A DNA stretch of 64,000 nucleotides from Actinomycetota bacterium (GCA_036556805.1 DATBIS010000116.1:7862-71861); one strand, 5' to 3'; positions 327 to 29,990 are shown, counted from the first letter of the stretch. Numbers and translations are program-made. The notes: generated by a model from the sequence alone, not told the origin.

Positions 327-671
327 CGTCCCGGCGCCGCCGGCGCCGCGCCGGCGACCGGCCTCAGGCCGCCGGGTGGAGGGGGTGCTTCGGGCGCACC
401 CGGATCTGGTAATGGCGCGCCGGCTCGTGCTGCCAGCAGCGGGCGCCGTCGTTGTAGCGCGACAGCACCGTCTCGCATGCGTCCGCCTCGCACACCCTTC
501 CGGCGGAGAACGCCCGAATGGGGCTCACGGAGGCGGGCGGCGTCGTCGACCCCCTGAGGACGCCCAGTTCTTCGTCTTGGAGCTGCGGTGACATCGGGTC
601 TCTCCTCCACGATCGGTCGCGGAGCCTGTACCCGCCCCCGGGCGGCTCGAAACGAGCACACGGCTCGCGCC

Positions 672-3452
672 CTAGGGCTCGACGCGAACGACGAGGATCG
701 CGATGTCGTCGCGCGGATGCTCCGGTCCGAACGTCAAGACGGCCCGCAGCAGGTCGTCGGCGATCTCGTCGGCCGAACGACCCTTCGCCCCTCGAAGCGT
801 CGCGACCACGCGCTCCTCGCCGAACGCCTCGCCGGCTCGACGCTCCTCGGTGAGCCCGTCCGTGTAGAAGATCACCGCGTCGCCGGGCTCGAGGTCGGCG
901 AAGGCGTCGGTGAGGCTCGGATTCGGGAACGTGCCGAGCAGCGTCCCGAGCTTCCCGAGGCTCGAGACCGAGCCGTCGGCCCTGCTGAGCAGCGGGAGCG
1001 GATGGCCGCCGCACGCCACCGTGATGCGCTGGCCGGTCGGCGTCGGGTGGAGTCGCGCGAAGACCGCGGTGCAGAAGCGATCATCCTCGTGACGCAGCAG
1101 CGACTCGTTGAGCGTCTTGAGGATGCCCGACGGGCGGGTCTCCGACAGCGCGGCGGTCCGGATCGTGTACCTCGACAATGCCATCACGGCCGCGGCCGGC
1201 GCTCCCTTGCCGCACACGTCGCCGAGCGCGATGCCCCAGTCGTCGTTCGCCATCGAGAAGACGTCGTAGAAGTCCCCCCCGACCTGCGTGCCGTCGCCGG
1301 AGGGGCGGTACCGTGCGCTCAGTTCGACCCCCGGCACGTCGGGCAGCGACGGGGGGAGGAGGCTGCGCTGCAAGGTGTCCGCGACGATCGCGCGCTCGGC
1401 GTAGAGGCGGGCGTTCTCGAGCGCCTGAGCCGCCCTCGCGGCGAGCTGCTCGGCGAGCGAACGATCCGCGTCGTCGAAGGGCCTCGCGTCGTCGGATCGG
1501 CCCAGCACGAGCACGCCCGAGGCGCTTCCTCGGTTGGACAACGGCACGATGAGCGCGGATCGCAGGCCCATCCCCTCGAGCGCCCCCTGCCCCTGGCTGC
1601 CGGACACGAGGCTGCCGGCGAACGACGGCCCGATCGTCGGCACCATGATCGAACGGTTGCTCGCAAGCGCCTGCGCGACGAGGTTGCGTTCGTCGTCGAG
1701 GACCGGAGCCGCCTCGGCCACCTCGAGGAGGAGCTCGCGGAGGTGGGGGACGCGATGCGCGACGGCGGTCCGCACGCCTCCGCCCTCCGGCCTCACGCGC
1801 CACACGATCGCGACGTCGGCGAGCCCGGAGACCGCGACGTCCGCGAGTCGGCTTGCGATCTCGTCCACGTCGAGCGAGCCGGTGAGCTTCAGCCCCGCCT
1901 CGGTCAGCAAGCCGAGGCGCGTGATGGCGGCCTCCGCTCGGGCGCGGGCGAGCTCCGCTGCCTCGCGAGCCCTCCGCTCGAGCTCCAGGAGGCGTTCCCG
2001 CTCGCGTTCGGCCTCGTGACGCTCCGAGAGGTCGAGCACGAAGCCGATCGCGCGGAACGGCTCGACCTGCAGCAGGGCGAGGCCGAGCAGCACCGGAACG
2101 CGGCGCCCGTCCCTGCGGATGTACTCCTTCTCGAAGGGCTCGGCCCGCCCCGTCTCGAGAAGCTTGTGCATGGCGGCGTCGCTCAGATGGCGCTGATCCG
2201 GCGGCGTCATCGCTCGCCAGCGGAGGCGACCCGCCTCCAGGTCCTCGCGCGTGTAGCCGACGATCTCGAGGAAGGCGTCGTTCGCTTCGAGAATGTCGTC
2301 GTCGGGACCCTCGACCATCGCGCCGATCACGTTGGACTCGAGCAGCCGCCGCGCACGCGCGGAGGTCTCGTCCTCGGCGCGCTGCAGGCGGGCCCGGTCC
2401 AGCGCGATCGCGGCCTGTCGCGCGACCGCGACGACCAGCTCCAGGTCCTCCTCGTCGAAGTCCCTGATCTCTCGGAAGCGCAGGCCGATCGCGCCGACGA
2501 CCGACGTGCCCGACAGCATCGGCACCGCCACGAAGGCCTCGTTGCGGGCCGTGGCGTCCGGGCCCATCGCGTAGCGTTCCCTGAGGGCCGCGTCGGACGG
2601 CCCCCAGATCGGCACGGCCGATCGCACGGCTTCGGCCATCGGGCGCTCGATCGGCGGCGGCTCATGCGCGAGGTCGAGACGACCCTCACGCGCGACGATC
2701 CGCAGGTCGCCCTCCTCGGTCAGCGCCACCGCGCCCCCCGCGGCGCCGGTGGAATCGATGGCCGCCGTCAAGAGCGCGTGGTGGACCTCGTCCTCGGTAC
2801 GCACGAGGCTGAGCCGTTCCGCGACCTGCTGCAGCGCGCGGGTCCGGGCGAGCGCCCGCTCGGCGCGGATGCGCTGCTCGTGCTCGCGATCGAAGAGCGC
2901 CGCGCGCTCGAGGCCGACGGCCAGGCGTTCTGCGACCACCTCGAGCAGGCGGAGATCGGTCTCGCCGAACGTATCCGGCTCCGTCGCGCCGACGACGACG
3001 ACGCCGACGACCGCCTTCCCGCTCACGAGCGGGGCCAGCGCGAGCGAGCGCATCCGCTGATCGAAGCCGTCCGATCTATCCCTGCCCCTCGTCTCGCCGA
3101 CGAGCTCCGAGCGTCCTCGTTCGGCCACACGCCCGGCGACACCGAGGCCGACCGGGATCCTGCGGTCGGCGCCGGTCGTCTCGATCCCGCTCGAGGCCCG
3201 GGGGACGAGCTCGTGGGTGGACTCGTCGACGAGCATCACGGCCCCCCAGGGGGCCCCCATCACCGTCCGCGTGCGATCGAGGATCTCTTGGAGCATCTCG
3301 TCCCGCGGGAGGAGCGTGAGGCCGACCTCGGTGACCTGCGCGAGCCGTCGGGAGAGGTCCTCGGCGCGCGAGTCGCGGCCGATCACCGTCGTATCCCCGG
3401 TGGACGGAGGACGATCAGGCGATCGGGACGGGGATTCGAACGGATCGTGCAT
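672..3452 (-). CDS. Multi-sensor PP2C/SpoIIE-type serine phosphatase (GAF-GAF-PAS-GAF-PP2C), RsbU/RsbP-like partner-switching phosphatase
   Basis: 926-aa ORF with repeated GAF-like blocks and a PAS-like segment (EANDAFLEIVGYTREDL). The C-terminal PP2C has hallmark motifs (GGDFYDVF, GDVCGKGAPAAAVMA, FYTDGLTE). The antisense ORF 588..3740 is low-complexity and was rejected. Confidence 0.9.
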   Translation of the reverse strand: MHDPFESPSRSPDRPPSTGDTTVIGRDSRAEDLSRRLAQVTEVGLTLLPRDEMLQEILDRTRTVMGAPWGAVMLVDESTHELVPRASSGIETTGADRRIPVGLGVAGRVAERGRSELVGETRGRDRSDGFDQRMRSLALAPLVSGKAVVGVVVVGATEPDTFGETDLRLLEVVAERLAVGLERAALFDREHEQRIRAERALARTRALQQVAERLSLVRTEDEVHHALLTAAIDSTGAAGGAVALTEEGDLRIVAREGRLDLAHEPPPIERPMAEAVRSAVPIWGPSDAALRERYAMGPDATARNEAFVAVPMLSGTSVVGAIGLRFREIRDFDEEDLELVVAVARQAAIALDRARLQRAEDETSARARRLLESNVIGAMVEGPDDDILEANDAFLEIVGYTREDLEAGRLRWRAMTPPDQRHLSDAAMHKLLETGRAEPFEKEYIRRDGRRVPVLLGLALLQVEPFRAIGFVLDLSERHEAERERERLLELERRAREAAELARARAEAAITRLGLLTEAGLKLTGSLDVDEIASRLADVAVSGLADVAIVWRVRPEGGGVRTAVAHRVPHLRELLLEVAEAAPVLDDERNLVAQALASNRSIMVPTIGPSFAGSLVSGSQGQGALEGMGLRSALIVPLSNRGSASGVLVLGRSDDARPFDDADRSLAEQLAARAAQALENARLYAERAIVADTLQRSLLPPSLPDVPGVELSARYRPSGDGTQVGGDFYDVFSMANDDWGIALGDVCGKGAPAAAVMALSRYTIRTAALSETRPSGILKTLNESLLRHEDDRFCTAVFARLHPTPTGQRITVACGGHPLPLLSRADGSVSSLGKLGTLLGTFPNPSLTDAFADLEPGDAVIFYTDGLTEERRAGEAFGEERVVATLRGAKGRSADEIADDLLRAVLTFGPEHPRDDIAILVVRVEP

Positions 3453-3786
3453 CCGTCTCGATCATGGGGAAGAGCGACACCAGGAGCTGTTGGCGATACC
3501 GGCGAGCGAACGCCTCCATCTCGTCGGTGGTCGGGCCGTCGGAGGCCGGGTCGGGGATCCCCTCGAACTCGACCGTGGCCTTGCCCTCGCCATCGGGAAC
3601 GCGAACGGAGACCACCGGAGAGTTGGGCGACCCGACCGCGGCCGCGAAGAGCTCCGAGACGGCGAGCTTCACGTCCTCGACCGTCGCGGCGTCCGCCCCG
3701 AGGATCCGCAAGGTGGAGGCGACGAACCGCCTGGCGGTAAGCGCGAACGCGCCGTCTGCCGGCGTCGTGAGTCGAGCCTCGATCAT
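3415..3786 (-). CDS. Anti-sigma-factor-like protein, UsfX/RsbW paralog with a degenerate HATPase fold
   Basis: 123 aa. The N-terminal region (VEDVKLAVSELFAAAV) resembles the RsbW/UsfX regulatory helix. No N/G1/G2 ATP-binding boxes. Sits between the STAS gene and the PP2C gene on the same strand. Confidence 0.6.
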   Translation of the reverse strand: MIEARLTTPADGAFALTARRFVASTLRILGADAATVEDVKLAVSELFAAAVGSPNSPVVSVRVPDGEGKATVEFEGIPDPASDGPTTDEMEAFARRYRQQLLVSLFPMIETDARSVRIPVPIA

Positions 3787-3798
3787 CGAGGCGCCGGA

Positions 3799-4086
3799 TC
3801 AGCCCTCGCCCGCCGCGTCGAGCGAGGTGAAGGTCGGGAGAAATCCGTCGAGCCCGGTCAGTGCGAGGAGCTTGTGGAGCGACGACGACTCTCCCGCCAC
3901 GACCGCGAACGTTCCGTCGTGCTCACGGAGCCGCTTGAGGCACGCCACCAGCACGCCGAGGCCGCTCGAGTCGATGAAGGCAACGCGATCCAGGTCGACG
4001 ACCACCTCGCGAGCGCCCGTGTCGGTCACCTCGACGACCGCCTCGCGGAGCCGCGGGGCCGTATAGAGATCGAGCTCCCCCGCCAC
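3799..4086 (-). CDS. STAS-domain anti-sigma-factor antagonist (SpoIIAA/RsbV/RsfA-like)
   Basis: 95 aa with an FIDSSGLGVLV motif and a conserved Ser phospho-acceptor context. GTG start at 4086, with an in-frame stop 13 codons upstream, so it is a short STAS. Confidence 0.8.
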   Translation of the reverse strand: MAGELDLYTAPRLREAVVEVTDTGAREVVVDLDRVAFIDSSGLGVLVACLKRLREHDGTFAVVAGESSSLHKLLALTGLDGFLPTFTSLDAAGEG

Positions 4087-4226
4087 TTGGAGGATCGTGC
4101 GCGCGCCTTCGGAACGGGTCTCGATCGTCAGATCGATCTCGAACGCCTCCTTCGTGCGGCAAGTGGCCGGCGAGCGAACACCCGGCTGGGGACGTCGGAT
4201 GGCCGCAGCTAGTATAGGTCGATCCC

Positions 4227-4613
4227 GTGACCGACCCCGGCCCCGTCTTCGGCAGCGTGCCCGCGAGCAGCGAGTTCGTCCCCGTCCTGCGCGGGCTCGT
4301 CGCGAGCGTCGGCGCGCGGGCCGACCTGCCGTTCGAACACATCGACGAGCTTCGGATGGCGGTCGACGAGGCCTGCGCCCTGCTGCTTCGCCTGGCGCCG
4401 GGCGACATCCTCTGGCTTCGACTGCTGCCCGCCAACGGGTCGCTCACCGCGGAGGTCGGCAGCAGTGGCGCGGCCGCTGCGTGGCCCCCCGCCGACGTCG
4501 AAGGATCCTGGCCGTGGAAGGTGATCGCCGGTCTCGCCGATGAGGCTCGCTTCGACGTCAACGATCGGGGGCCGTCGATCGTGATCGTCAAGCGCGTTCC
4601 CTCTCTGCGGTGA
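4227..4613 (+). CDS. rsbW: Anti-sigma-F factor UsfX/RsbW-like
   Basis: 128 aa. Motifs DELRMAVDEACALLLR and SWPWKVIAGLADEA parallel mycobacterial UsfX (DLRLAVDEVCTRLIR..SWHVLTALADDV). ATGA overlap with the downstream sigma-factor gene. Confidence 0.8.
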   Translation: MTDPGPVFGSVPASSEFVPVLRGLVASVGARADLPFEHIDELRMAVDEACALLLRLAPGDILWLRLLPANGSLTAEVGSSGAAAAWPPADVEGSWPWKVIAGLADEARFDVNDRGPSIVIVKRVPSLR

Positions 4614-5386
4614 ACGAGGAAGCGACGGCTGAGGGGCGGGGATCCGCGGGCGACCCCGAAGAGGTGCTCGAGCTGTTTGCGCGGCTCCCCAATGGTGATG
4701 CCCGCGAGGCGCTCGTCGTTCGGTTCCTTCCGCTCGCCGAGTACTTCGCTCGGAGGTTCACCGGGCGCGGGGAGTCGATCGAGGATCTCCAGCAGGTCGC
4801 GAGTCTCGGACTGCTGCACGCGATCGACCGCTTCGACACCGAGCGCGGCGTGCAGTTCTCGACGTACGCGGCGGCCACGATCGTGGGCGAGATCAAGCGA
4901 CACTTCCGTGACAAAGGCTGGGCCATCCGCGTCCCGCGGAACCTCCAGGAGTCGGCGCTTCGCGTCAACCGGCTGCTGTCGCAGCTCTGGCAGGAGCTGG
5001 GACGATCGCCGACGGTGGCCGAGATCGCCGAGCGCGCGGACCTCGCCGAGGAGGAAGTGCTCGAAGCGATCGATGCGGTGCAGGCCTATTCGACGGGATC
5101 GCTCGACGCGCCGACAACAGAGGGGTCACCGACGCCCGCCGAGACGCTCGGGGAGGAGGATCCGCTCTTCGAGCTCGCTGAGGGGTGGTCTTCGGTCGCG
5201 CCCACCATCCGGGCGCTCCCTGCGCGCGAGCGCCAGATCCTGTACCTGCGATTCTTCGAGGGACTGACGCAATCCGAGATCGCGCAACGAATCGGGATCT
5301 CCCAGATGCATGTGTCGCGCCTGCTCGGTCAGACGCTCGAGCTGCTTCGACGTCAGGTCGACCCCGACCGCGTCGAGGGGGAGTAG
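4610..5386 (+). CDS. sigF: RNA polymerase sigma factor, SigB/SigF (group 3) family
   Basis: 258 aa with sigma-70 regions 2, 3 and 4 (YLPLAEYFARRF, DLQQVASLGLLHAIDRFD, LTQSEIAQRIGISQMHVSRL). Translationally coupled to the anti-sigma gene, the classic usfX-sigF arrangement. Confidence 0.9.
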   Translation: MNEEATAEGRGSAGDPEEVLELFARLPNGDAREALVVRFLPLAEYFARRFTGRGESIEDLQQVASLGLLHAIDRFDTERGVQFSTYAAATIVGEIKRHFRDKGWAIRVPRNLQESALRVNRLLSQLWQELGRSPTVAEIAERADLAEEEVLEAIDAVQAYSTGSLDAPTTEGSPTPAETLGEEDPLFELAEGWSSVAPTIRALPARERQILYLRFFEGLTQSEIAQRIGISQMHVSRLLGQTLELLRRQVDPDRVEGE

Positions 5387-5425
5387 CGGGCGCGGGGGAC
5401 GTCCCGCCACTCCCCGTGCGCGGGG

Positions 5426-5602
5426 TCACTTGCCCCAGATGCTGATCCCCCCGGGGCCGACGAGCACACCGATGATCACGAGGACGATGCCCGTCAGGAG
5501 TTCGCCCCGAATGAACGCCACGATGCCGGCGATCACCAGGATGGCGGCGAGAATCCAGAGCAGGGTCGCCGCTCCACCCGAAAGCGCAAGCAGTGCAAGC
5601 AT
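5426..5602 (-). CDS. Small membrane protein (58 aa, 2 TM, GPGG motif)
   Basis: Internal ATG of ORF 5426..5707, preceded by a strong RBS GAAGGAGG 7 nt upstream. Product MLALLALSGGAATLLWILAAILVIAGIVAFIRGELLTGIVLVIIGVLVGPGGISIWGK. A candidate SigF/SigB-type promoter lies upstream. Confidence 0.45.
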   Translation of the reverse strand: MLALLALSGGAATLLWILAAILVIAGIVAFIRGELLTGIVLVIIGVLVGPGGISIWGK

Positions 5603-5643
5603 GGTTCCTCCTTCGTCCGAAACGTCTCTCGTTCGCATGGTGT

Positions 5644-5669
5644 GTTCCCTCTCGCTCGCGCATTGAAAC
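5644..5669 (-). promoter_or_regulatory. Candidate SigB/SigF-type promoter (GTTTC-N15-GGGAAC) for the small membrane-protein gene 5426..5602
   Basis: On the minus strand, GTTTC (5669-5665) and GGGAAC (5649-5644). The -10-like element lies about 41 nt upstream of the start codon. Group-3 sigma consensus is GTTT-N14-17-GGGTAT. Confidence 0.3.
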
Positions 5670-5709
5670 GAACGTTTCGACGTCGTGACGACGAGGTAAC
5701 TCCTCATGC

Positions 5710-6210
5710 ATGAACGTGCAGGAACGCCGCGACGAGCGGTCGGACGGCGGCGTATCGAAAGGGGAAACGCAGAAGCAGCGCGTGGATCGGGAGCTGATCG
5801 AGCTCCTCAACGAGCTTCGCGTCACGTTGCCCGGGGTCCAGGTGCTCTTCGCGTTCCTGTTGATCGTGCCGTTCAGCGCAGGATTCGCTCAGCTGTCCTC
5901 CGGCCAGCGGGCCTGGTACTTCACGAGCTTCCTCGCGACGGCGGCCGCTGCCGTGCTCCTCGTCGCGCCGGCGAGCCACCATCGGGTTCGTTTCCGCGAG
6001 GGGGACAAGGACTGGATGGTCCGCACCGCAAACCGTCTGGCGATCGCGGGCATGGCCCTGCTCGCCGTAGCGATCGCGAGTGCCGCGTTCCTCGTCACGG
6101 ACGTGCTCTTCACCGTCTCGTGGGCGGCGGCGGTTGCCGCGGCGCTCGGCGGGGGGATGGTCTGGTTCTGGTTCGGCGTCCCGCTCCTGCATCGAGAAGA
6201 GCGAAGGTGA
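5710..6210 (+). CDS. Conserved actinobacterial membrane protein (DUF6328-like)
   Basis: 166 aa with an N-terminal charged region (ELIELLNELRVTLPGVQVLFAFLLIVPF) followed by hydrophobic helices. The long antisense ORF 5704..7881 was rejected. Confidence 0.6.
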   Translation: MNVQERRDERSDGGVSKGETQKQRVDRELIELLNELRVTLPGVQVLFAFLLIVPFSAGFAQLSSGQRAWYFTSFLATAAAAVLLVAPASHHRVRFREGDKDWMVRTANRLAIAGMALLAVAIASAAFLVTDVLFTVSWAAAVAAALGGGMVWFWFGVPLLHREERR

Positions 6211-6355
6211 CGTCCCGGGAGAGCCGGCCGTCGGCGCGACGTTCGTCAGCCCGGCGGGTCCTATTGGGCGCTGGGGCAGGTACGCGGTCGAGTTCATGTC
6301 CGCGGTGGTGAGAAAGGCACCGGGTCTTCCGATCTCGAGGAAGGGTGGCCGTCCG

Positions 6356-6778
6356 GTGCGCGGCATTCGGGCGGCGTTCCTCGCTGTTGCTCTTGCCCTC
6401 ATGGGATCAGCCTGCGGCGGGGGCGGCGTGCTGGAGGCCAAGGATCTGCTGGAACAATCGAAATCATTGCAATCGTTGGCCGCCGAGGGCGCGCTCCTCG
6501 CTGAGGACGGGGCGTCCGGCAAGACGACGCGCGTCTTCATGCAGGAACACTCCTCCGACCTCTTCCTGGCCGCATCCCAAGTGGAGGCCACGTTGGCGCA
6601 GGCCAAGAGCGAGCAACCGATCGTGGTGCAGCTCCGCAAGCTGACCGTCCTCGCCGGTCGAGTAAGCGCCAACCTCGAACTCCTCACCGTTGCCTCGCGA
6701 GAGGAGCAACGCGTGCTCGTTGGCGAGCTGGAATCGGCTGCCCGAGCGTGCCGAACGATCGGTGAAGCGCTCTCATGA
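6356..6778 (+). CDS. Putative secreted protein or lipoprotein
   Basis: GTG start gives VRGIRAAFLAVALALMGSAC-GGGG, a signal peptide with Cys after the h-region. An in-frame upstream ATG exists at 6296. Coiled-coil-like mature domain. 4-nt overlap with the NRAMP start. Confidence 0.5.
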   Translation: MRGIRAAFLAVALALMGSACGGGGVLEAKDLLEQSKSLQSLAAEGALLAEDGASGKTTRVFMQEHSSDLFLAASQVEATLAQAKSEQPIVVQLRKLTVLAGRVSANLELLTVASREEQRVLVGELESAARACRTIGEALS

Positions 6779-8010
6779 GCGTGAAGAACGTCCTCGCCGT
6801 GGCGCTGGGAATCCTCTCCGCGATCGGTGGCTTCGTGGACATCGGCGATCTCGTCTTCAACACGCAGGCCGGCGCGACCTTCGGCTTCCAACTCCTCTGG
6901 GTCGTCGTGATCGGAGTCCTCGGGATCATCGTCTATTCGGAGATGTGCGGGCGCGTCTCGGCCATCGCGCAGCGCCCGGTCTTCGACCTCGTGCGGGAGC
7001 GCACCGGTTTCGGGGCGGGACTCGCGACCCTCATTGCCTCCGAGATCGTCAACCTGATGACGTGCGCCGCGGAGATCGGTGGAGTCGCCATCTGCCTTCA
7101 ACTTCTCTCCGGCCTCCCGTACCGTCTCTTGATCCCGATCGGCGTGGTGGGTCTGGTCCTGTGCTGTTGGGTGCTGCCGTTCAGATGGATCGAGAGAGTC
7201 TTCAGCTATCTCGGCCTGTGCCTGCTCGTCTTTGCCGTGGCCGCGATCAAGCTGCGCCCGGATTGGGGCCAGGTTGCTCATGGGTTCGTTCCCGGCGCCC
7301 ACGACGGCGGCAGTCTGACGGTCTACCTCTACTTCGTGGTCGGCCTGATCGGAGCCGCGATGACTCCCTACGAGGTCTACTTCTATTCCTCGGGTGCCGT
7401 GGAGGACCGCTGGGGCCCAAAGGATCTCGGGTTGAACAGGGTGACCGCGATGATCGGCTACGGTTTGGGAGGCCTTCTCTCCTTCGCGCTGATGATCGTC
7501 GCGGCCGTCCTCTTCTTGCCGAGCGGCATCTCCCCGCAGTTCCTGGGCACACCCCCACTCGCCGCCGGACATGTGGTGGGGCAGGTGGGCCTGCTGTTGG
7601 CGCTCATCGGCATCCTCTTCGCCGTGGGCGGCGCGGCCATCGAGACCTCCTTCGCCGGCGCCTACAACGTGGCCCAGTTCTTCGGGTGGAAGTGGGGAAA
7701 GAAGGAGCGCCCGGCCGGCGCGCCGCGCTTCACGCTCTCGTGGCTCGTCATCTTTGCTCTTGCGCTCTTGGTCGTCATGACGGGATTGGACCCGATCAAG
7801 CTCACGGAGTACTCGGTCATCTTCTCGGTGGTCGCGTTGCCCCTCACCTACCTGCCGATCCTGGTCGTTGCCAACGACCACACCTATATGGGAGCCAACG
7901 TGAACGGAAGGCTGGCCAACGTCCTCGGCACCCTCTACTTCATCGTCATCCTCTTGATCGCCGTCGCGGCCATCCCACTGATGGTGCTGACGAACGGAGG
8001 ACAGGGATGA
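6775..8010 (+). CDS. mntH: NRAMP-family divalent metal (Mn2+/Fe2+) transporter
   Basis: 411 aa, about 11 TM. Conserved NRAMP motifs (DIGDLVFNTQAGA, MTPYEVYFYSSGAVED). Confidence 0.9.
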   Translation: MSVKNVLAVALGILSAIGGFVDIGDLVFNTQAGATFGFQLLWVVVIGVLGIIVYSEMCGRVSAIAQRPVFDLVRERTGFGAGLATLIASEIVNLMTCAAEIGGVAICLQLLSGLPYRLLIPIGVVGLVLCCWVLPFRWIERVFSYLGLCLLVFAVAAIKLRPDWGQVAHGFVPGAHDGGSLTVYLYFVVGLIGAAMTPYEVYFYSSGAVEDRWGPKDLGLNRVTAMIGYGLGGLLSFALMIVAAVLFLPSGISPQFLGTPPLAAGHVVGQVGLLLALIGILFAVGGAAIETSFAGAYNVAQFFGWKWGKKERPAGAPRFTLSWLVIFALALLVVMTGLDPIKLTEYSVIFSVVALPLTYLPILVVANDHTYMGANVNGRLANVLGTLYFIVILLIAVAAIPLMVLTNGGQG

Positions 8011-8351
8011 GCAAGACCGTCGAAATCGACATCGCCCTCGGCATCCTCGATCATCAGCTCGTCGACAGCGATGGCCAGAACTGCGGCAAGGTGGACGATC
8101 TCGAGATCACTGACCTCGATGGCGACTCGCCGGAAATCGTTGAGATCCTCGTGGGAGGTACCGCGTGGCGCGCTCGCGGTCGCCTCGGACGGATTGCGGC
8201 ACGCGTTTCCGGAGATGCCGTACATGTTCCCTGGACCGAGGTCGAGTCCGTGACGTCGGTCGTGAACATCCGGCGCCCTGCGGGCGAGTTGCGCCTGAAC
8301 CGAGGCGACGCTCGATGGGCGCGGGTCTTCGAGAAGGTGCCGGGGTCCTGA
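8007..8351 (+). CDS. PRC-barrel domain protein
   Basis: 114 aa from an ATG overlapping the mntH stop (ATGA). The sequence IDIALGILDHQLVDSDGQNCGKVDDLEI is typical of PRC-barrel proteins. Confidence 0.6.
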   Translation: MSKTVEIDIALGILDHQLVDSDGQNCGKVDDLEITDLDGDSPEIVEILVGGTAWRARGRLGRIAARVSGDAVHVPWTEVESVTSVVNIRRPAGELRLNRGDARWARVFEKVPGS

Positions 8352-8629
8352 TGCGAATCTCGGAACTGCTGAACCGGGAGGTCGTGACCGAGTCGGGTCG
8401 GCGGCTGGGGCGCATCCACGATGTCCGCGGCGAGCTCGTGGGGAATCGGCTTCTCGTGACCGGGCTGATCGCCGGCAAGCTCGGAATCCTCGAACGTTTC
8501 GGGATCGGGACCCACGGAAGCGGTGGCCCGGGGGAGGCGCGAGTACACGGGCAGGACATGATCCCGGTGGACCGAATCGTTCGCGTCGGACCTGAGATCA
8601 CGGTCGCCGACGAACGCCCGAGCTCCTAG
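8351..8629 (+). CDS. PRC-barrel domain protein (second, tandem paralog)
   Basis: 92 aa. The ATG overlaps the stop of the previous gene. ISELLNREVVTESGRRLGRIHDVRGEL is a PRC-barrel signature. Confidence 0.6.
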   Translation: MRISELLNREVVTESGRRLGRIHDVRGELVGNRLLVTGLIAGKLGILERFGIGTHGSGGPGEARVHGQDMIPVDRIVRVGPEITVADERPSS

Positions 8630-8955
8630 CGGCGCCCAAGAGCGCGGGCGAGCTCGGCCTTCGACATCGTGGAGCGACCGCGGATGTTCCGCTCCTTGGC
8701 CTCGTTGTACAGCTGGTCGTAGGTGCGCCCGCCGGGGCCCGAATGCGAACGCAGGCCGCCGCGCCGTCCCGAGGAGATGTCCTCGATCGAGGACCGGCTC
8801 GCCGTCCTGGCCTCACCGGACCTTGCCCGCTCCTTGTTGACGGTGCGGGCCGCGATCTCCTCGGCGGTGTCCTCGGACCGCCCTCGTTTCCGAAGCCCTT
8901 GCTTGATGTGCTCGTACTGCCGTTCCCGCTTCTTGCTCCACGCCCGCTGCGGCAT
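8626..8955 (-). CDS. Conserved small actinobacterial protein with a C-terminal Rho_N-like motif
   Basis: 109 aa. Conserved-looking N-terminus MPQRAWSKKRERQYEHIKQG...EEIAARTVNKERARSGE, and C-terminal RSTMSKAELARALG resembling the Rho-termination-factor N-terminal domain. Confidence 0.65.
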   Translation of the reverse strand: MPQRAWSKKRERQYEHIKQGLRKRGRSEDTAEEIAARTVNKERARSGEARTASRSSIEDISSGRRGGLRSHSGPGGRTYDQLYNEAKERNIRGRSTMSKAELARALGRR

Positions 8956-8979
8956 GTTCGATCCCCTCCTTCGACGGAA

Positions 8980-9507
8980 TCAGGCGACGTCGGCGAGGAC
9001 CGGCTGCGGACGCCACTCGCCGATCAGGGCCTCGAGGTCGCGGTAGACCGGGACGCCGTAGCGTCGGCCGGCGCGACGGAGCGCCTTTGCGGCGGACGGG
9101 GTCGGGCCGTACAGGGCGCGGACGCGCGCGAACTCCGTCCGCCACCAGTGGGGTCCGACGGCCGAGCGACCCCAGCCCTCAACGACGCCGAGCACGAGGC
9201 CGTCGCGCCCGCCGGAGCCGGATGTGGCGTGCCACCACGTCTGTGCGATCGCGGGGGATGACCGTTCCTCCGGCACGTCGTGCAGCCCGTAGATGCCGCA
9301 CGTGCAATGCCCGCTGGGCGCGCCGTCGAGGTGGTTGTTCTCCTCCGCGCGCCACGGCAACAGCCGGCGGCTCGCCAGGCAGCGGGCCGTGTTCATGCCC
9401 GGCGCCCAACGCACGAACGTGCGAAGCGGGGAGCGCAGCTCACCGTTCGCCTCGAATCGCCACCACCGGAAGCCGTAGAAGCCCGTTGCCTCGAGCAGCC
9501 TGTCCAT
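8980..9507 (-). CDS. Hypothetical Trp-rich protein
   Basis: Internal ATG of ORF 8980..9633 giving 175 aa (FYGFRWWRFEANGEL...HCTCGIYGLHDV). No family recognised. The ORFs in the other frames look worse. Confidence 0.45.
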   Translation of the reverse strand: MDRLLEATGFYGFRWWRFEANGELRSPLRTFVRWAPGMNTARCLASRRLLPWRAEENNHLDGAPSGHCTCGIYGLHDVPEERSSPAIAQTWWHATSGSGGRDGLVLGVVEGWGRSAVGPHWWRTEFARVRALYGPTPSAAKALRRAGRRYGVPVYRDLEALIGEWRPQPVLADVA

Positions 9508-9619
9508 CCGTACCCCCTGGGAACGACGTGCCTGGACAAGCCATCCCCGGGAGGGTCGCCGGCTAAACGCCCCGGGTCGTGGTGTGGGCCCGATACCACT
9601 TTTCCCGTAGGCTTGAGGC

Positions 9620-9820
9620 ATGCCGGACAGCATGGGAAAGCGTCAACGTCGCGACGTCAAGGCTCGCAAGGCCGCGGCGATCGAGGAGCGGAGGCTCGCG
9701 CGCCGGCAGCGTGCGGCCGACCGCGCCGCCGGCGTGATCCCCCCCGGCCCCGGCCTCGGCGAGCCGCCCGAGCCGCTCATCGGCCCCGGCGAGGACGAGC
9801 CCGAGCACGACGAGAGCTAG
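9620..9820 (+). CDS. Small basic protein (hypothetical)
   Basis: 66 aa, Lys/Arg-rich N-terminus (GKRQRRDVKARKAAAIEERRLARRQ) and acidic C-terminus. Could be a real small protein or chance. Confidence 0.3.
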   Translation: MPDSMGKRQRRDVKARKAAAIEERRLARRQRAADRAAGVIPPGPGLGEPPEPLIGPGEDEPEHDES

Positions 9821-10000: not shown

Positions 10001-10057
10001 TCACGTTTGGACCGGCCCGGACGGGGGTAGCGCCGAACGCATCGTGTCGAACCCGAG

Positions 10058-10453
10058 TCAGGCAGACAGCCCCGTGTCGCGTGCCACCTCGAACCACACC
10101 GTGGTCTCGTCGTTGCGGTGGATCCCCCAGCGGGCGGCGATGCGTCGCAGCAGGGTCAGACCCCAGCCGGCCTCGAGATTGCGAGCCGGTCCCGCCGTGT
10201 CGGGATCGAAGCCCGGCCCCGAGTCGGTGACGGCGACGTGGACCTGGCGAGTGTCCACCCGAACACGGAGCTCGATGGATTCGTTCGCCGAAAGGCGCGC
10301 GTGCCGGACGCTGTTGGTGACGAGCTCGCTCACCAGCAACATCGTCTCCTCGAACGCGCGCCGGTCGAGGCTCGGGCGCATCCCCTCGAGGGCGCGCCGG
10401 GCGGCGGCCGGGGCCCGGGCGTCCGCGGGCAACGACACATCGAAATCGAACAC
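10058..10453 (-). CDS. HATPase_c anti-sigma regulatory factor (RsbW-like Ser/Thr kinase)
   Basis: 131 aa with an N-box (ELVTNSVRHA) and G-boxes (DSGPGF, GWGLTLL). Confidence 0.8.
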   Translation of the reverse strand: MFDFDVSLPADARAPAAARRALEGMRPSLDRRAFEETMLLVSELVTNSVRHARLSANESIELRVRVDTRQVHVAVTDSGPGFDPDTAGPARNLEAGWGLTLLRRIAARWGIHRNDETTVWFEVARDTGLSA

Positions 10454-10541: not shown

Positions 10542-10847
10542 CTAGTCCTCGAGACGGATGTCGTCGACGCGATCCAGTCCGGTCACCGCGAAGACCTCAC
10601 GGACGAACGGCGAGGCGTGCTCGACGACGAGGGTGCCCCGCCCCGCGAGCTTCCTCGCGAGCGAGAGAAGGCCGTGCAGGCCGGAGCTGTCGATGAACGA
10701 GAGGTCGGTGGCGTCCAGCCGCAGGTCGCCGGGTTCCCCTGCCCTGGGGCCGATCGCCTCGACGAGCGCCTCGACCGACGCGAGATCGAGCTCACCCTCG
10801 AGCCGGAAGGCGCGCGGGTCGTCCGTGGGCTCCACGCGAAATGGCAT
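10542..10847 (-). CDS. STAS-domain anti-sigma-factor antagonist
   Basis: Internal ATG of ORF 10542..10919, about 101 aa, with an FIDSSGLHGLL motif. Lies upstream of the HATPase gene on the same strand. Confidence 0.8.
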   Translation of the reverse strand: MPFRVEPTDDPRAFRLEGELDLASVEALVEAIGPRAGEPGDLRLDATDLSFIDSSGLHGLLSLARKLAGRGTLVVEHASPFVREVFAVTGLDRVDDIRLED

Positions 10848-10933
10848 CCTTGGATCCCCCAGTCGGTTCGCGCGGACCGTATCGCGAGCGGGCACCGGCG
10901 TCAGTACGCCACCGTACACGGGGCCGGTGCGGC

Positions 10934-11668
10934 ATGGTGAGCTGGCTGAGCGTCGACGGCGACGGCGAGCTCGGAACGCCGAACCATCTGCTCGGCGCGC
11001 TGCCCCCCGCCGATGTCGAGGGCTTCCTCGGTCGTCTCCAGCGCCGGTTGACGGAGCCGGGCGACGTGCTCTACCAGCCCGGCCGCCGGCTCGATCACGT
11101 GTTCTTCCCGGAGACCGCGGTGGTCTCGATCCTCACGATGCTCGCGGACGGCTCCGGCATCGAGACCGCCACGATCGGAAGGGAGGGAATGGCGGGGATC
11201 TTCCTGTTCCTGGGCGACGACCGGAGCCGCAACGGGCGCGCCGTCGTGCAGATGGGCGGATCCGTCCTTCGCCTCGACGTTGACGCGTTCCGTGCGGGCG
11301 TCGCGGCGAGCGCGAAGTTCGAACAGCTGATGATCATGTACTCGCGCGCGTTCCTCCTCCAGGTCTCGCAGAGCGTCGCGTGCGGCGCGGTGCATCCGAT
11401 CCGGGCGCGGCTCGCGCGCTGGCTCCTGCAGACGAGCGACCGCAGGACCTCGGAGGACGTCGCGCTCACCCAGCAGTTCCTCGCCGACATCCTCGGCGTG
11501 CGCCGGGCTTCCGTGAGCGAGGCGGTGAGCGACCTGAAGGATCGGGGCGTGGTTGCCGTGCGTCGCGGCGGGCTCATGATCATCGATCGCACCGGCCTCG
11601 CCCGGTACGCGTGCGAATGCTACGGCGTGGTGCGCGACGAGTACGCTCGCCTGGCACCCGGCGGCTGA
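10934..11668 (+). CDS. Crp/Fnr-family transcriptional regulator
   Basis: cNMP-binding beta-roll plus a C-terminal HTH (LTQQFLADILGVRRASVSEAVSDLKDRG). Start set at the internal ATG (MVSWLSVDG). Confidence 0.85.
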   Translation: MVSWLSVDGDGELGTPNHLLGALPPADVEGFLGRLQRRLTEPGDVLYQPGRRLDHVFFPETAVVSILTMLADGSGIETATIGREGMAGIFLFLGDDRSRNGRAVVQMGGSVLRLDVDAFRAGVAASAKFEQLMIMYSRAFLLQVSQSVACGAVHPIRARLARWLLQTSDRRTSEDVALTQQFLADILGVRRASVSEAVSDLKDRGVVAVRRGGLMIIDRTGLARYACECYGVVRDEYARLAPGG

Positions 11669-12768: not shown

Positions 12769-13365
12769 TCAGCGCTGCTCGACGAGCGGCGTCAGCAGCT
12801 CCTCGAGCGGCCCGGTACCGAGGTCGTGCACCTCGATCGGCTTCCCCATCCACGCGGCGATCTCGCGCGCCTTCGACTCCCGGCCCGGGTCCACGTGCTG
12901 CCGCACGAACAGGATCCGCTCGATGTTGCCGAAGTACGTCTCCTGCAGGTCCGGATAACGATCGAGCCCGAGCGCCCGAACGACCGCGCGCTCCCAGTTC
13001 GCGACCAGCCAGTCGGTGAGGAAGTAGATGCCGACGTCGTCCTCGAACCGGCGGAACACCTCGCCGGCGTACCACTGGAAGCAGTGGGCGCCGGCGGGGC
13101 GCACCGTGGGGTAGCGGCGGAGCACCTCGTCGAGCGCCCCGCCGGTCCCGCAGTCGCCGTAGACGACGATCACTCGTTCGTAGGAGGGAAGGAGGTCGAG
13201 GAGCTTCGCCTCGACCGCCGGCGCGATGTCACCGGGGGTCATGTGCAGGTCGGACGAGATGCCGTGCACGTCGGCGTCCCATCCTCGTCGTCGCACGAGC
13301 GCGGCGGTGTCGATCGCGACCGCCCCGCACGCGAGGAACGCGAGCCGCGCGCCGGTCGCCGTCAC
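12769..13365 (-). CDS. DUF1638-domain protein
   Basis: Start moved to the in-frame GTG (VTATGARLAFLACGAV...). Conserved DUF1638 features (VIVVYGDCGTGG). Confidence 0.65.
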   Translation of the reverse strand: MTATGARLAFLACGAVAIDTAALVRRRGWDADVHGISSDLHMTPGDIAPAVEAKLLDLLPSYERVIVVYGDCGTGGALDEVLRRYPTVRPAGAHCFQWYAGEVFRRFEDDVGIYFLTDWLVANWERAVVRALGLDRYPDLQETYFGNIERILFVRQHVDPGRESKAREIAAWMGKPIEVHDLGTGPLEELLTPLVEQR

Positions 13366-13415
13366 GCGCGCGTCACCTCGCGGCGCCACGTGCGGCTCGG
13401 GGAGGCCATGCGCCG

Positions 13416-14954
13416 ATGATACGGTCGGCGAGCATGGATCCGGCCCGGCTCCGCGACCGCTCTCGCCTCGCGCTGTGGGCATCGGCGACCGGCATCACGC
13501 TCGTGGCGTTGGTCGCGTCCGTCCCCGGCGCTCCGTTGCAGCCCGTGCTCCCCGACGGGGTCGTACCGGGCGGTCCGTTCGCCGCGATCGCAAGCGCCGT
13601 CGGTCTCGACGCGGTCTCGTCGACTGCCCTCGTCACGATCTCCGTGATCGCGGTGACGTTCGGGGCACTCGCGTTCCTCTTCGTCCTGCGCGAAGCGTGG
13701 CGCGGGAACGTGTCGCTGCGCTCGGTCGTGGTGCTCGCGATCGCCGCGCACCTCGTCGTGCTGACCCTGCCGCTCCTCGTGTCGCGCGACGTGTACTCCT
13801 ACATCGCCTACGGGCAGATCGCCGGGCTTCACCACGCGAACCCGTACGTCCAGACCCCCGCGGACTTCCCGCTGGATCCGATCGCCTCGCTCGTGGGCCC
13901 GAAGTGGATCGCCACGCCGGCCGTGTACGGGCCGCTGTTCACCTCGATGGCCGCGCTGCTCACGCGCGCGATCGGCGGCATCGCCGCACTCGTGGACGTG
14001 TTCCGCGTGATCGCGGCAGCCGCGAGCCTCGGCACGCTCGCGATCGTCGTGTGGCTCGCGAAGCGGCTCGCTCCTCGCCGGGTGGCGTTCGCGGCGGCCG
14101 CGTTCGCGCTGAACCCCGTCGTGCTGTTCCAGTCGGTCGGCAGCGGGCACAACGACCTGCTGGTGGGGCTCTCGATCGCGGGCGCCCTCGCGCTCGTCGT
14201 CGTCGGCCGGACCCACTGGGCCGTGGCGGCGCTCGCGGCCGGCACGCTGGTGAAGGCGCCCGCCGCGTTGCCGCTCGTGCTGCTGATCGTGTGGGTGGTC
14301 GCCCGGCGGCCGCCTGCCGAACGGCTTCGCGCGCTCGCCTCGCACGTTGGCCTCGCGGCGGCGATCGGGCTCGCGTTCGCCGCGCCCTACCTCCAACGCG
14401 AGGATCCGACGCTCGGCATGGCGGAGCTTGCCGGCCACGAGGGCTGGCTCGCGCCGTCGCGGCTGGCCCGACGCGTGCTCGACGCGATCAGCGCGGATAC
14501 GGCCGGCGTCGCCGCGCGCGTGCTGTTCGCGATCGTGCTCGTCGCCGTGGTGGGAGCTCTCGGATGGCGGGTCGTGCGGCGCGCTCACGAGATCTCGCCC
14601 GTCGGCCTCGGCGCGGCGTGGGGCTGGGCCTTGCTCGCCCTCATGCTGCTCGGCCCCGTGCTCCTGCCGTGGTACGCGACGTGGGCGCTGCCCCTCGTCT
14701 GGCTGGTGCCGCTCGTGCCTCGCGGCGTGCTGCTCACGACCTCGACCGCGCTCGTCGTTTCGCAGTGGACGGCCGAGCCGGACCGCTTCCCCGGCGCGTA
14801 CGACGCGAACGTCCTGGTGGGCCACTACGTGATCACGCCGATCGTCGTGCTGGCGCTGGCGGCGCTCCTGCTCGACCTACGGCGACGGCTCGTCGCCGGT
14901 TCGCCGCTCGAGGACGGCATGGACGAGGTATCCGCCGCCGCCCACCGCGATTGA
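13416..14954 (+). CDS. Polytopic membrane glycosyltransferase-like protein (GT87/DUF2029-like, GT-C fold)
   Basis: 512 aa, about 12 TM. Blocks DVYSYIAYGQI and GSGHNDLL are typical of mannosyltransferase-like GT-C enzymes. Confidence 0.75.
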   Translation: MIRSASMDPARLRDRSRLALWASATGITLVALVASVPGAPLQPVLPDGVVPGGPFAAIASAVGLDAVSSTALVTISVIAVTFGALAFLFVLREAWRGNVSLRSVVVLAIAAHLVVLTLPLLVSRDVYSYIAYGQIAGLHHANPYVQTPADFPLDPIASLVGPKWIATPAVYGPLFTSMAALLTRAIGGIAALVDVFRVIAAAASLGTLAIVVWLAKRLAPRRVAFAAAAFALNPVVLFQSVGSGHNDLLVGLSIAGALALVVVGRTHWAVAALAAGTLVKAPAALPLVLLIVWVVARRPPAERLRALASHVGLAAAIGLAFAAPYLQREDPTLGMAELAGHEGWLAPSRLARRVLDAISADTAGVAARVLFAIVLVAVVGALGWRVVRRAHEISPVGLGAAWGWALLALMLLGPVLLPWYATWALPLVWLVPLVPRGVLLTTSTALVVSQWTAEPDRFPGAYDANVLVGHYVITPIVVLALAALLLDLRRRLVAGSPLEDGMDEVSAAAHRD

Positions 14955-29913: not shown

Positions 29914-29990
29914 GGGGGTGTAGCTCAGCCCGGTAGAGCACTGCCTTCGCACGGCAGGGGTCGTCGGTTCAAATCCGATCACCTCCACCA
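29914..29990 (+). tRNA. tRNA-Ala (anticodon CGC)
   Basis: GGGGGTGTAGCTCAGCCCGGTAGAGCACTGCCTTCGCACGGCAGGGGTCGTCGGTTCAAATCCGATCACCTCCACCA. Cloverleaf with a G3:U70 pair in the acceptor stem, anticodon loop TTCGCAC, encoded CCA. Confidence 0.9.

Follow-up and report, generated by a model that had tools for sequence, protein, structure and literature searches.

A probable SigF partner switch with divided RsbW roles in an uncultured soil actinobacterium

The locus beside described partner switches

In Mycobacterium smegmatis, the partner switch that controls SigF divides the work of RsbW among three paralogs. RsbW1 is the anti-SigF factor; RsbW2, which has intact N, G1 and G2 boxes and is encoded with rsfB, alone phosphorylates RsfB at Ser63; and RsbW3 binds RsbW1, not SigF, and raises SigF activity when overexpressed (PMC7693655). 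The PP2C phosphatase RsfR dephosphorylates RsfB (PMC10950880), and the mycobacterial antagonists, kinase and phosphatase are encoded at loci other than sigF (PMC7693655, PMC10950880). M. smegmatis is the only organism in which experiments have established this division of RsbW roles. Here we describe a comparable set of genes in a 64-kb stretch of DNA, hereafter the window, from an uncultured soil Actinomycetota (GCA_036556805.1) with a G+C content of ~70%. Positions 672-5386 had been flagged, from an earlier reading that we call the original prediction, as a complete SigF module; we find that the set is complete only at the scale of the window.

The original prediction rightly placed the mycobacterial genes away from sigF, and contrasted them with the co-localisation seen here. 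Such co-localisation is not unusual. The sigB operon of Bacillus subtilis (RsbR/S/T/U/V/W/SigB/X) is fully clustered, and sensor phosphatases of the GAF/PAS-SpoIIE type are common. The most unusual feature is instead an apparently conserved AUC start codon in the antagonist gene, together with a conserved dead-kinase paralog of RsbW. Neither the locus nor these two features change the current understanding of partner switching.

We suggest, with a probability of roughly 0.6, that the genes form a SigF partner switch whose parts extend over ~11 kb, with an RsbW-type protein (K3) as the kinase of a STAS antagonist (STAS1), a PP2C phosphatase as the reset and a kinase-dead paralog (K2) that acts by binding only. 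The UsfX-like protein (4227-4613), translationally coupled and catalytically dead, would hold SigF inactive, and unphosphorylated STAS1 would bind UsfX to free SigF. K3 would turn STAS1 off by phosphorylating Ser57, and would act likewise on a second antagonist, STAS2. The GAF-GAF-PAS-GAF-PP2C protein (672-3386) would turn STAS1 on again by dephosphorylation, its activity gated by the sensor domains. K2, like M. smegmatis RsbW3, most likely acts by binding, with STAS1 or UsfX as its partner. Once released, SigF would drive flanking small stress genes from GTTT-N16-GGGnAy promoters. The genes are identified from domain identities, the presence or absence of motifs, synteny and fusions, and the contacts and enzyme-substrate pairs are proposed from homology, synteny and fusion.

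As in M. smegmatis, a non-kinase anti-sigma factor is co-transcribed with sigF, a different RsbW paralog, competent as a kinase, is encoded together with a STAS antagonist, and a third, non-kinase RsbW paralog adjoins a STAS gene. By homology, a PP2C phosphatase would also reset the phosphoserine antagonist here, and the candidate SigF promoters are of the GTTT-N16-17-GGGTA type. There are differences as well. The M. smegmatis genes lie at distant loci, whereas in the window usfX-sigF has the genes for antagonist, dead paralog and phosphatase as immediate neighbours, and the kinase pair is ~6 kb off. The phosphatase would sense through GAF and PAS domains, whereas that of M. smegmatis uses a receiver domain that takes its input from a histidine kinase, and K2 has 123 amino acids (aa) compared with 194 for RsbW3.

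Among solved structures, M. tuberculosis UsfX-SigF with RsfB (8jzt, 8ih8) and Rv1364c (3ke6) provide the matches to UsfX, STAS1 and the PP2C domain. Rv1364c combines sensor, PP2C, kinase and STAS domains in one chain; here they are encoded by separate genes, and two relatives of the phosphatase (P0168 and P0169) fuse PP2C and kinase. The B. subtilis sigB and SpoIIAA-SpoIIAB-SpoIIE systems likewise comprise a sigma factor, a GHKL-type anti-sigma factor, a STAS antagonist bearing the DSSG serine and an input phosphatase of the PP2C type, encoded by clustered genes. In Bacillus the anti-sigma factor is itself the kinase, whereas here the two roles fall to different paralogs, and the locus has neither the stressosome nor the RsbU-type N-terminal domain of the sigB system. 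The division of RsbW into anti-sigma, kinase and binding-only roles would thus recur in a deep uncultured actinobacterial lineage, and would not be a mycobacterial oddity. Given that the parts are physically close and some are fused in relatives, the locus also offers compact constructs for reconstituting the switch.

A proposed kinase outside the flagged interval

The five genes named in the original prediction, their identities and their divergent layout are borne out by the open reading frames (ORFs), which were found at the coordinates given, and by domain matches; each is independently supported as a real gene (Table 1). Copies of these genes that are identical or almost identical are present in several independent assemblies of soil metagenomes, as well as in one NCBI metagenome-assembled genome (MAG). 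The module they form is nonetheless incomplete, as three motifs, the N-box Asn, G1 DxGxG and G2 GxGL, are all missing from both RsbW-like proteins in 672-5386. In the UsfX-like protein the N box reads DEACALLL (Asn to Leu), the G1 region VGSSGA and the G2 region SWPW. In K2 the N box reads SELFAAAV (Asn to Ala) and G1 reads EFEGI, with G2 absent (RYRQ), and the lid region is shortened in both proteins. Because both lack the ATP-binding boxes, nothing in the interval is expected to phosphorylate the STAS1 serine.

The set of sigma factor, anti-sigma factor, antagonist, kinase and phosphatase becomes complete only with K3 (10058-10453), the one kinase-competent RsbW-type gene in the window, ~6 kb away and outside the flagged interval. 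A tblastn search of the window for paralogs of the five proteins returned only STAS2 (10542-10919), and K3 was found by reading the ORFs that adjoin it. K3 matches HATPase_c_2 at 66 bits and HATPase_c at 40 bits, and its boxes are intact (N, SELVTNSVRH; G1, DSGPG; G2, GWGL). STAS2 scores 60 bits against STAS_2, carries the DSSG motif and is 36% identical to STAS1. The K3 gene lies directly downstream of STAS2 in one operon, and the pair is divergent from a gene for a Crp/FNR-type regulator.

Several relatives bring such kinases closer to the antagonist, which supports a place for K3 in this circuit. Directly after STAS1 in three related loci (L008, L009 and L014) are K3-type kinases that score 80-85 bits to K3; L014 has STAS1, K2 and the kinase in that order, and the genes overlap. 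In L086 (GCA_036002195.1) the Crp regulator/STAS2-kinase layout recurs in the equivalent position close to sigF, and the STAS1-K2-PP2C operon is extended by one more STAS-kinase pair (13230-13989). Two proteins of ~1050 aa, P0168 and P0169, are 41-42% identical to the window phosphatase over 85% of its length and carry a C-terminal HATPase_c_2 kinase domain; that of P0168 shares 46% identity with K3 (E = 6e-27). At the level of sequence, the fusion is a Rosetta-stone link between the predicted kinase and phosphatase, which are opposing enzymes.

The sigma factor exceeds the cut-off of TIGR02980 (SigB/F/G), at 268.5 bits against 234.35, and its regions r2, r3 and r4 score 71.5, 50.3 and 62.6 bits. 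The SigF label is supported by the UsfX-like neighbour. This neighbour matches HATPase_c_2 weakly (29.7 bits; cut-off 27.4) and the M. tuberculosis anti-sigma-F RsbW/UsfX chains 8jzt_B and 8ih8_C at E = 2e-10. A usfX-like gene lies directly 5' of sigF in nearly all of the 80 loci retrieved with SigF, and loss of the N, G1 and G2 boxes is common to every UsfX-like gene adjoining sigF in the related loci examined, including those of Streptomyces and Frankia. The two genes had been described as coupled by an ATGA overlap; we read the overlap with the usfX stop codon as GTGA, with GTG as the sigF start.

Only the closest clade, which consists of uncultured Actinomycetota (L004-L015 and L086-L089), has the divergent STAS/usfX-sigF layout. 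K2-like genes follow STAS1 in L005, L006, L010, L014 and L086-L089, and L011 has a weaker K2 match within a long ORF at the same place. A PP2C gene is nearby in most of the divergent loci, its position and strand varying. By this varied placement, STAS1/usfX-sigF is the conserved core, and K2, the kinase and the phosphatase are frequent but movable.

The dead-kinase paralog and rival readings

What, then, is K2? Its HATPase_c_2 score (21.5 bits) is under the cut-off, a sequence search against the PDB gave nothing meaningful, and BLASTP against UsfX was marginal (E = 0.1), so that kinship with UsfX rests on the fold and on a profile search. An AlphaFold (AF2) model, built on a ten-member family alignment with a predicted local distance difference test score (pLDDT) of 86.5, matches SpoIIAB, RsbW and UsfX structures (1tid, 6m36, 8ih8, 1l0o) with Foldseek probability 1.0 and template-modelling (TM) scores of 0.64-0.76. 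As modelled, K2 has the Bergerat-type alpha/beta fold of RsbW and SpoIIAB. The profile search found 741 relatives, and most of the best 150 lack ATP-binding motifs; the box losses seen in K2 are conserved across its family. The K2 gene is co-transcribed with STAS1. The locus offers a natural setting in which to ask about the function of dead-kinase paralogs.

In an Acidimicrobiia MAG (L030, 4818-6726) the gene order is STAS, K2-like, sigF, with overlapping genes, and the UsfX-like gene is on the opposite strand. The K2-like and UsfX-like paralog types seem interchangeable across lineages.

The order STAS, GHKL paralog, PP2C is also that of rsbS-rsbT-rsbU, and it recurs in L005 and L086-L088. 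This could point to a two-tier cascade in which STAS1 holds K2, K2 released on a signal binds and activates the phosphatase, and the phosphatase acts on phosphorylated STAS2, with K3 as the kinase of STAS2 and STAS2 as the antagonist of UsfX; STAS2-K3 is, after all, a canonical antagonist-kinase pair. We consider such a cascade unlikely. RsbT cannot leave RsbS without kinase activity, and the kinase motifs are missing from K2; the phosphatase has GAF and PAS sensors, not the N-terminal RsbT-binding domain of RsbU; and K2 stays beside STAS1 in loci where the phosphatase is elsewhere (L010 and L014). It is, moreover, STAS1 and not STAS2 that is linked to usfX-sigF across relatives and that resembles RsfB: in its 112-aa form (see below) STAS1 matches RsfB chain 8ih8_A at E = 1.2e-9, and STAS2 gives no match to RsfB at E <= 1e-3. 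On account of this resemblance, STAS1 is favoured as the UsfX antagonist.

Less probable still is that STAS1, K2 and the phosphatase are a separate switch that merely adjoins usfX-sigF, with K2 the anti-sigma factor of another sigma factor or directed at a non-sigma target. K2 does fall within the UsfX-like family of non-kinase anti-sigma factors, the L030 arrangement has a K2-like protein in the anti-sigma slot upstream of sigF, and partner switches with non-sigma outputs are known. However, STAS1 is paired divergently with usfX-sigF in at least 15 lineages whose surrounding genes differ, STAS1 occurs without K2 in L004, L008 and L012 and so has another partner, and a tblastn search with SigF found no second sigma gene in the window. 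The least probable reading, a switch self-contained in 672-5386 in which one UsfX-like protein both sequesters SigF and phosphorylates the STAS protein as Bacillus RsbW and SpoIIAB do, would fit the classic rsbV-rsbW order of STAS then RsbW-like gene, the GHKL/RsbW fold of both the UsfX-like protein and K2, and a GIPD remnant of the G1 region in K2, but is opposed by ATP-box losses and shortened lids that are conserved across both families, by the nearby canonical kinase K3 and by the specialisation of M. smegmatis RsbW1 as an anti-sigma factor, with kinase activity in RsbW2 (PMC7693655).

Several observations weigh against the SigF partner switch that we prefer, with K3 as the STAS1 kinase. 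K3 is in its own operon with STAS2, which may be its sole substrate. Control of STAS1 could instead involve no phosphorylation, or come from a Hanks-type kinase; PknD, a kinase of this type, reportedly acts on Rv0516c. The role proposed for K2 is complicated by L030, where a K2-like non-kinase protein fills the anti-sigma slot. The sigma factor scores 257.5 bits against NCBIfam NF005514 (SigF), under the SigF-specific cut-off of 372, and for this reason "SigF" is used here as a family-level name. Lastly, the SigF-type promoter sought upstream of 4227 and of the STAS operon was found before neither, on both strands and with relaxed matching (best, 7 of 10 positions), so that usfX and K2 differ in this from their counterparts in M. 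smegmatis, and usfX-sigF from that of M. tuberculosis.

Antagonist start codon, sensor phosphatase and flanking genes

As called from GTG 4086, the STAS1 ORF (3799-4086, 95 aa) matches PF01740 at 64 bits and TIGR00377 at 75 bits. It keeps the phosphorylatable serine on which the original prediction depended, FIDSSGLG aligning with FMDSSGLG of SpoIIAA. This 95-aa product lacks strand beta1, and the family models match it only from position 16-19. The frame is open upstream of GTG 4086, without a canonical start codon. The peptide encoded there, IDLTIETRSEGARTILQ, can be aligned to strand beta1 of SpoIIAA, beginning at residue 5, and the STAS domain has its N-terminal beta strand(s) in full only when ATC 4137 is used as the start. 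At the codon aligned with this ATC (4137-4135), eleven related loci carry ATG or GTG, and four other lineages (L014, L086/87, L088 and L089) carry ATC. Eight nucleotides (nt) upstream is a purine-rich Shine-Dalgarno sequence, GAAGGAGG in the window (~4146-4153) and GAAAGGG in L086/87, L088 and L089; its spacing in L014 is ambiguous. An assembly error at the ATC is unlikely, given that four independent assemblies of the window's species agree.

The STAS1 gene thus most likely starts at ATC 4137, which would give a protein of 112 aa that aligns to SpoIIAA residues 5-97 and would place the conserved serine (codon 3969-3967) at the canonical position, Ser57. In different relatives the gene callers give STAS1 lengths of 95, 122 or 148 aa. 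The likely AUC start is therefore a practical warning, as every gene caller examined mis-annotated STAS1.

In Escherichia coli, initiation at AUC reaches ~0.02-3% of that at AUG (bioRxiv 10.1101/063800). It is conceivable, though we think it rather unlikely, that an AUC-started antagonist is scarce relative to UsfX, making SigF release sensitive to the fidelity of initiation factor 3 (IF3) as well as to phosphorylation, with K2 as a third partner that buffers the antagonist or UsfX. If true, the AUC start would give this partner switch a threshold at translation, and K2 would give it a pseudokinase decoy.

The domain order proposed for the 926-aa phosphatase is confirmed by Pfam: GAF at residues 50-182 and 218-352, PAS at 366-480, GAF at 527-679 and SpoIIE/PP2C at 737-924, the last matching PF07228 at 166 bits over model positions 3-191 of 192. 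The metal-binding Asp residues, whose loss would have made the protein a pseudophosphatase, are in place; D727, D730, D745, D865, D915 and D916 align to Asp residues of Rv1364c and RssB, within the motifs GGDFYD (725-730), LGDVCGKG (743-750), YTDG (863-866) and RDDIAIL (914-920). Rv1364c is the best solved relative of this domain (E = 4e-14). The orthologues P0163 and P0164 (64-66% identity, 98% coverage) begin near residue 20 of the 926-aa ORF, and GTG 3386 is the start given by one gene caller. The phosphatase probably starts there, with 904 aa, instead of at ATG 3452, and a start at GTG 3386 would remove the 38-nt overlap with the K2 gene (3415-3786).

Phosphatases of this GAF/PAS-SpoIIE type gave 730 matches at E <= 1e-20, many of those listed having the same domain set. 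Against the PDB the sensor region returned only weak, generic GAF matches (a cyanobacterial adenylate cyclase and DevS), which offer no clue to a ligand. That three GAF domains and a PAS domain mean several small-molecule inputs, as the original prediction had it, is speculation.

Within the 89-nt divergent intergenic region, a block GCTAGTATAGGTCG just 5' of the conserved usfX GTG is invariant in four lineages; Table 1 lists the conserved stretch at 4196-4221 as CGGATGGCCGCAGCTAGTATAGGTCG. Most simply, TAGTAT (4210-4215), 11 nt before the GTG, is a candidate housekeeping-type -10 element. The GCTAGTATAGGTCG block is likewise a candidate, either for a -10 element that would give a near-leaderless usfX-sigF mRNA or for an operator. 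A scan of 500-6000 for sigma-70 promoters and intrinsic terminators returned none.

SigF-type motifs do occur beside the flanking genes. All four in the window fall in the first 10.1 kb, against ~0.3 expected (post hoc Poisson P ~3e-4), with none in the other 54 kb. L006 has five such motifs in 5.9 kb, and close relatives are similarly enriched. The motif at 5645-5669 is kept with its small gene at the orthologous place in L086 (motif 8108-8133, 57-aa gene; 8108-8351). Homologues of the 76-aa Cys-rich gene lie just 3' of the same motif in L004, L008, L009 and L012, beside STAS or kinase genes. From this clustering and conservation, the locus appears to sit in a small SigF-regulon island. The fourth motif, at 10005-10029, may be due to chance or may give a SigF-dependent transcript antisense to the kinase.

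Table 1. Coordinates of the features discussed, counted from the first letter of the window
Feature	Coordinates	Strand	Basis or context
Sensor phosphatase, GAF-GAF-PAS-GAF-PP2C (SpoIIE)	672-3452, probable start 3386	-	Pfam
K2, RsbW/SpoIIAB fold (modelled), no kinase motifs, 123 aa	3415-3786	-	AlphaFold model and profile search
STAS1, RsfB/SpoIIAA-like antagonist, 112 aa if started at ATC	3799-4137	-	STAS, TIGR00377
Conserved block CGGATGGCCGCAGCTAGTATAGGTCG in divergent intergenic region	4196-4221	+	Lineage comparison
UsfX/RsbW1-like anti-SigF, 128 aa, no kinase motifs	4227-4613	+	PDB matches 8jzt, 8ih8
Group-3 sigma factor, SigB/SigF/SigG family	4610-5386	+	TIGR02980
K3, kinase-competent RsbW-type protein, 131 aa	10058-10453	-	HATPase_c_2, HATPase_c, motifs
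STAS2, antagonist-type with DSSG motif	10542-10919	-	STAS_2
Crp/FNR-type regulator, cNMP_binding and HTH_Crp_2	10841-11668	+	Divergent from STAS2-K3
SigF-type candidate GTTT-N16-GGGTAC	629-653	-	Ends 34 nt upstream of ATG of 76-aa Cys-rich gene 364-594 (-)
SigF-type candidate GTTT-N16-GGGAAC	5645-5669	-	Ends 42 nt upstream of 58-aa membrane-protein gene 5426-5602 (-)
SigF-type candidate GTTT-N16-GGGGAT	9544-9568	-	Ends 36 nt upstream of internal ATG 9507 in ORF 8980-9633 (-)
Fourth motif, GTTT-N16-GGGTA	10005-10029	+	Antisense to K3/STAS2 operon, no plausible + gene downstream
DUF6328 membrane protein	5710-6210		
Nramp transporter	6775-8010		
PRC-barrel protein	8165-8629		
Small basic protein, Rho_N-like tail	8626-8955		
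175-217-aa protein, no family assigned	8980-9633	-	

The 76-aa Cys-rich protein has the zinc-ribbon-like pattern RVC-x4-C...TVLS-YN...CWQHE. It matches no Pfam family, and a homologue search gave only two near-identical proteins; the gene may belong, as a conserved component, to the SigF regulon, or its product may act as a regulator. The 58-aa protein, encoded convergently to sigF, is a two-helix membrane protein with a weak DUF5699 match.

Two long ORFs of the plus strand were set aside as Arg- and Pro-rich off-frame artefacts of 70% G+C DNA, one of 1050 aa (588-3740) antisense to the phosphatase and one of 148 aa (4097-4543) overlapping usfX. Rfam models applied to the whole window gave no riboswitch or leader near the locus, the sole match being a tRNA gene at 29914-29987 (+). 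Between sigF and the K3/STAS2 pair, the genes of 5710-9633 resemble a general-stress set.

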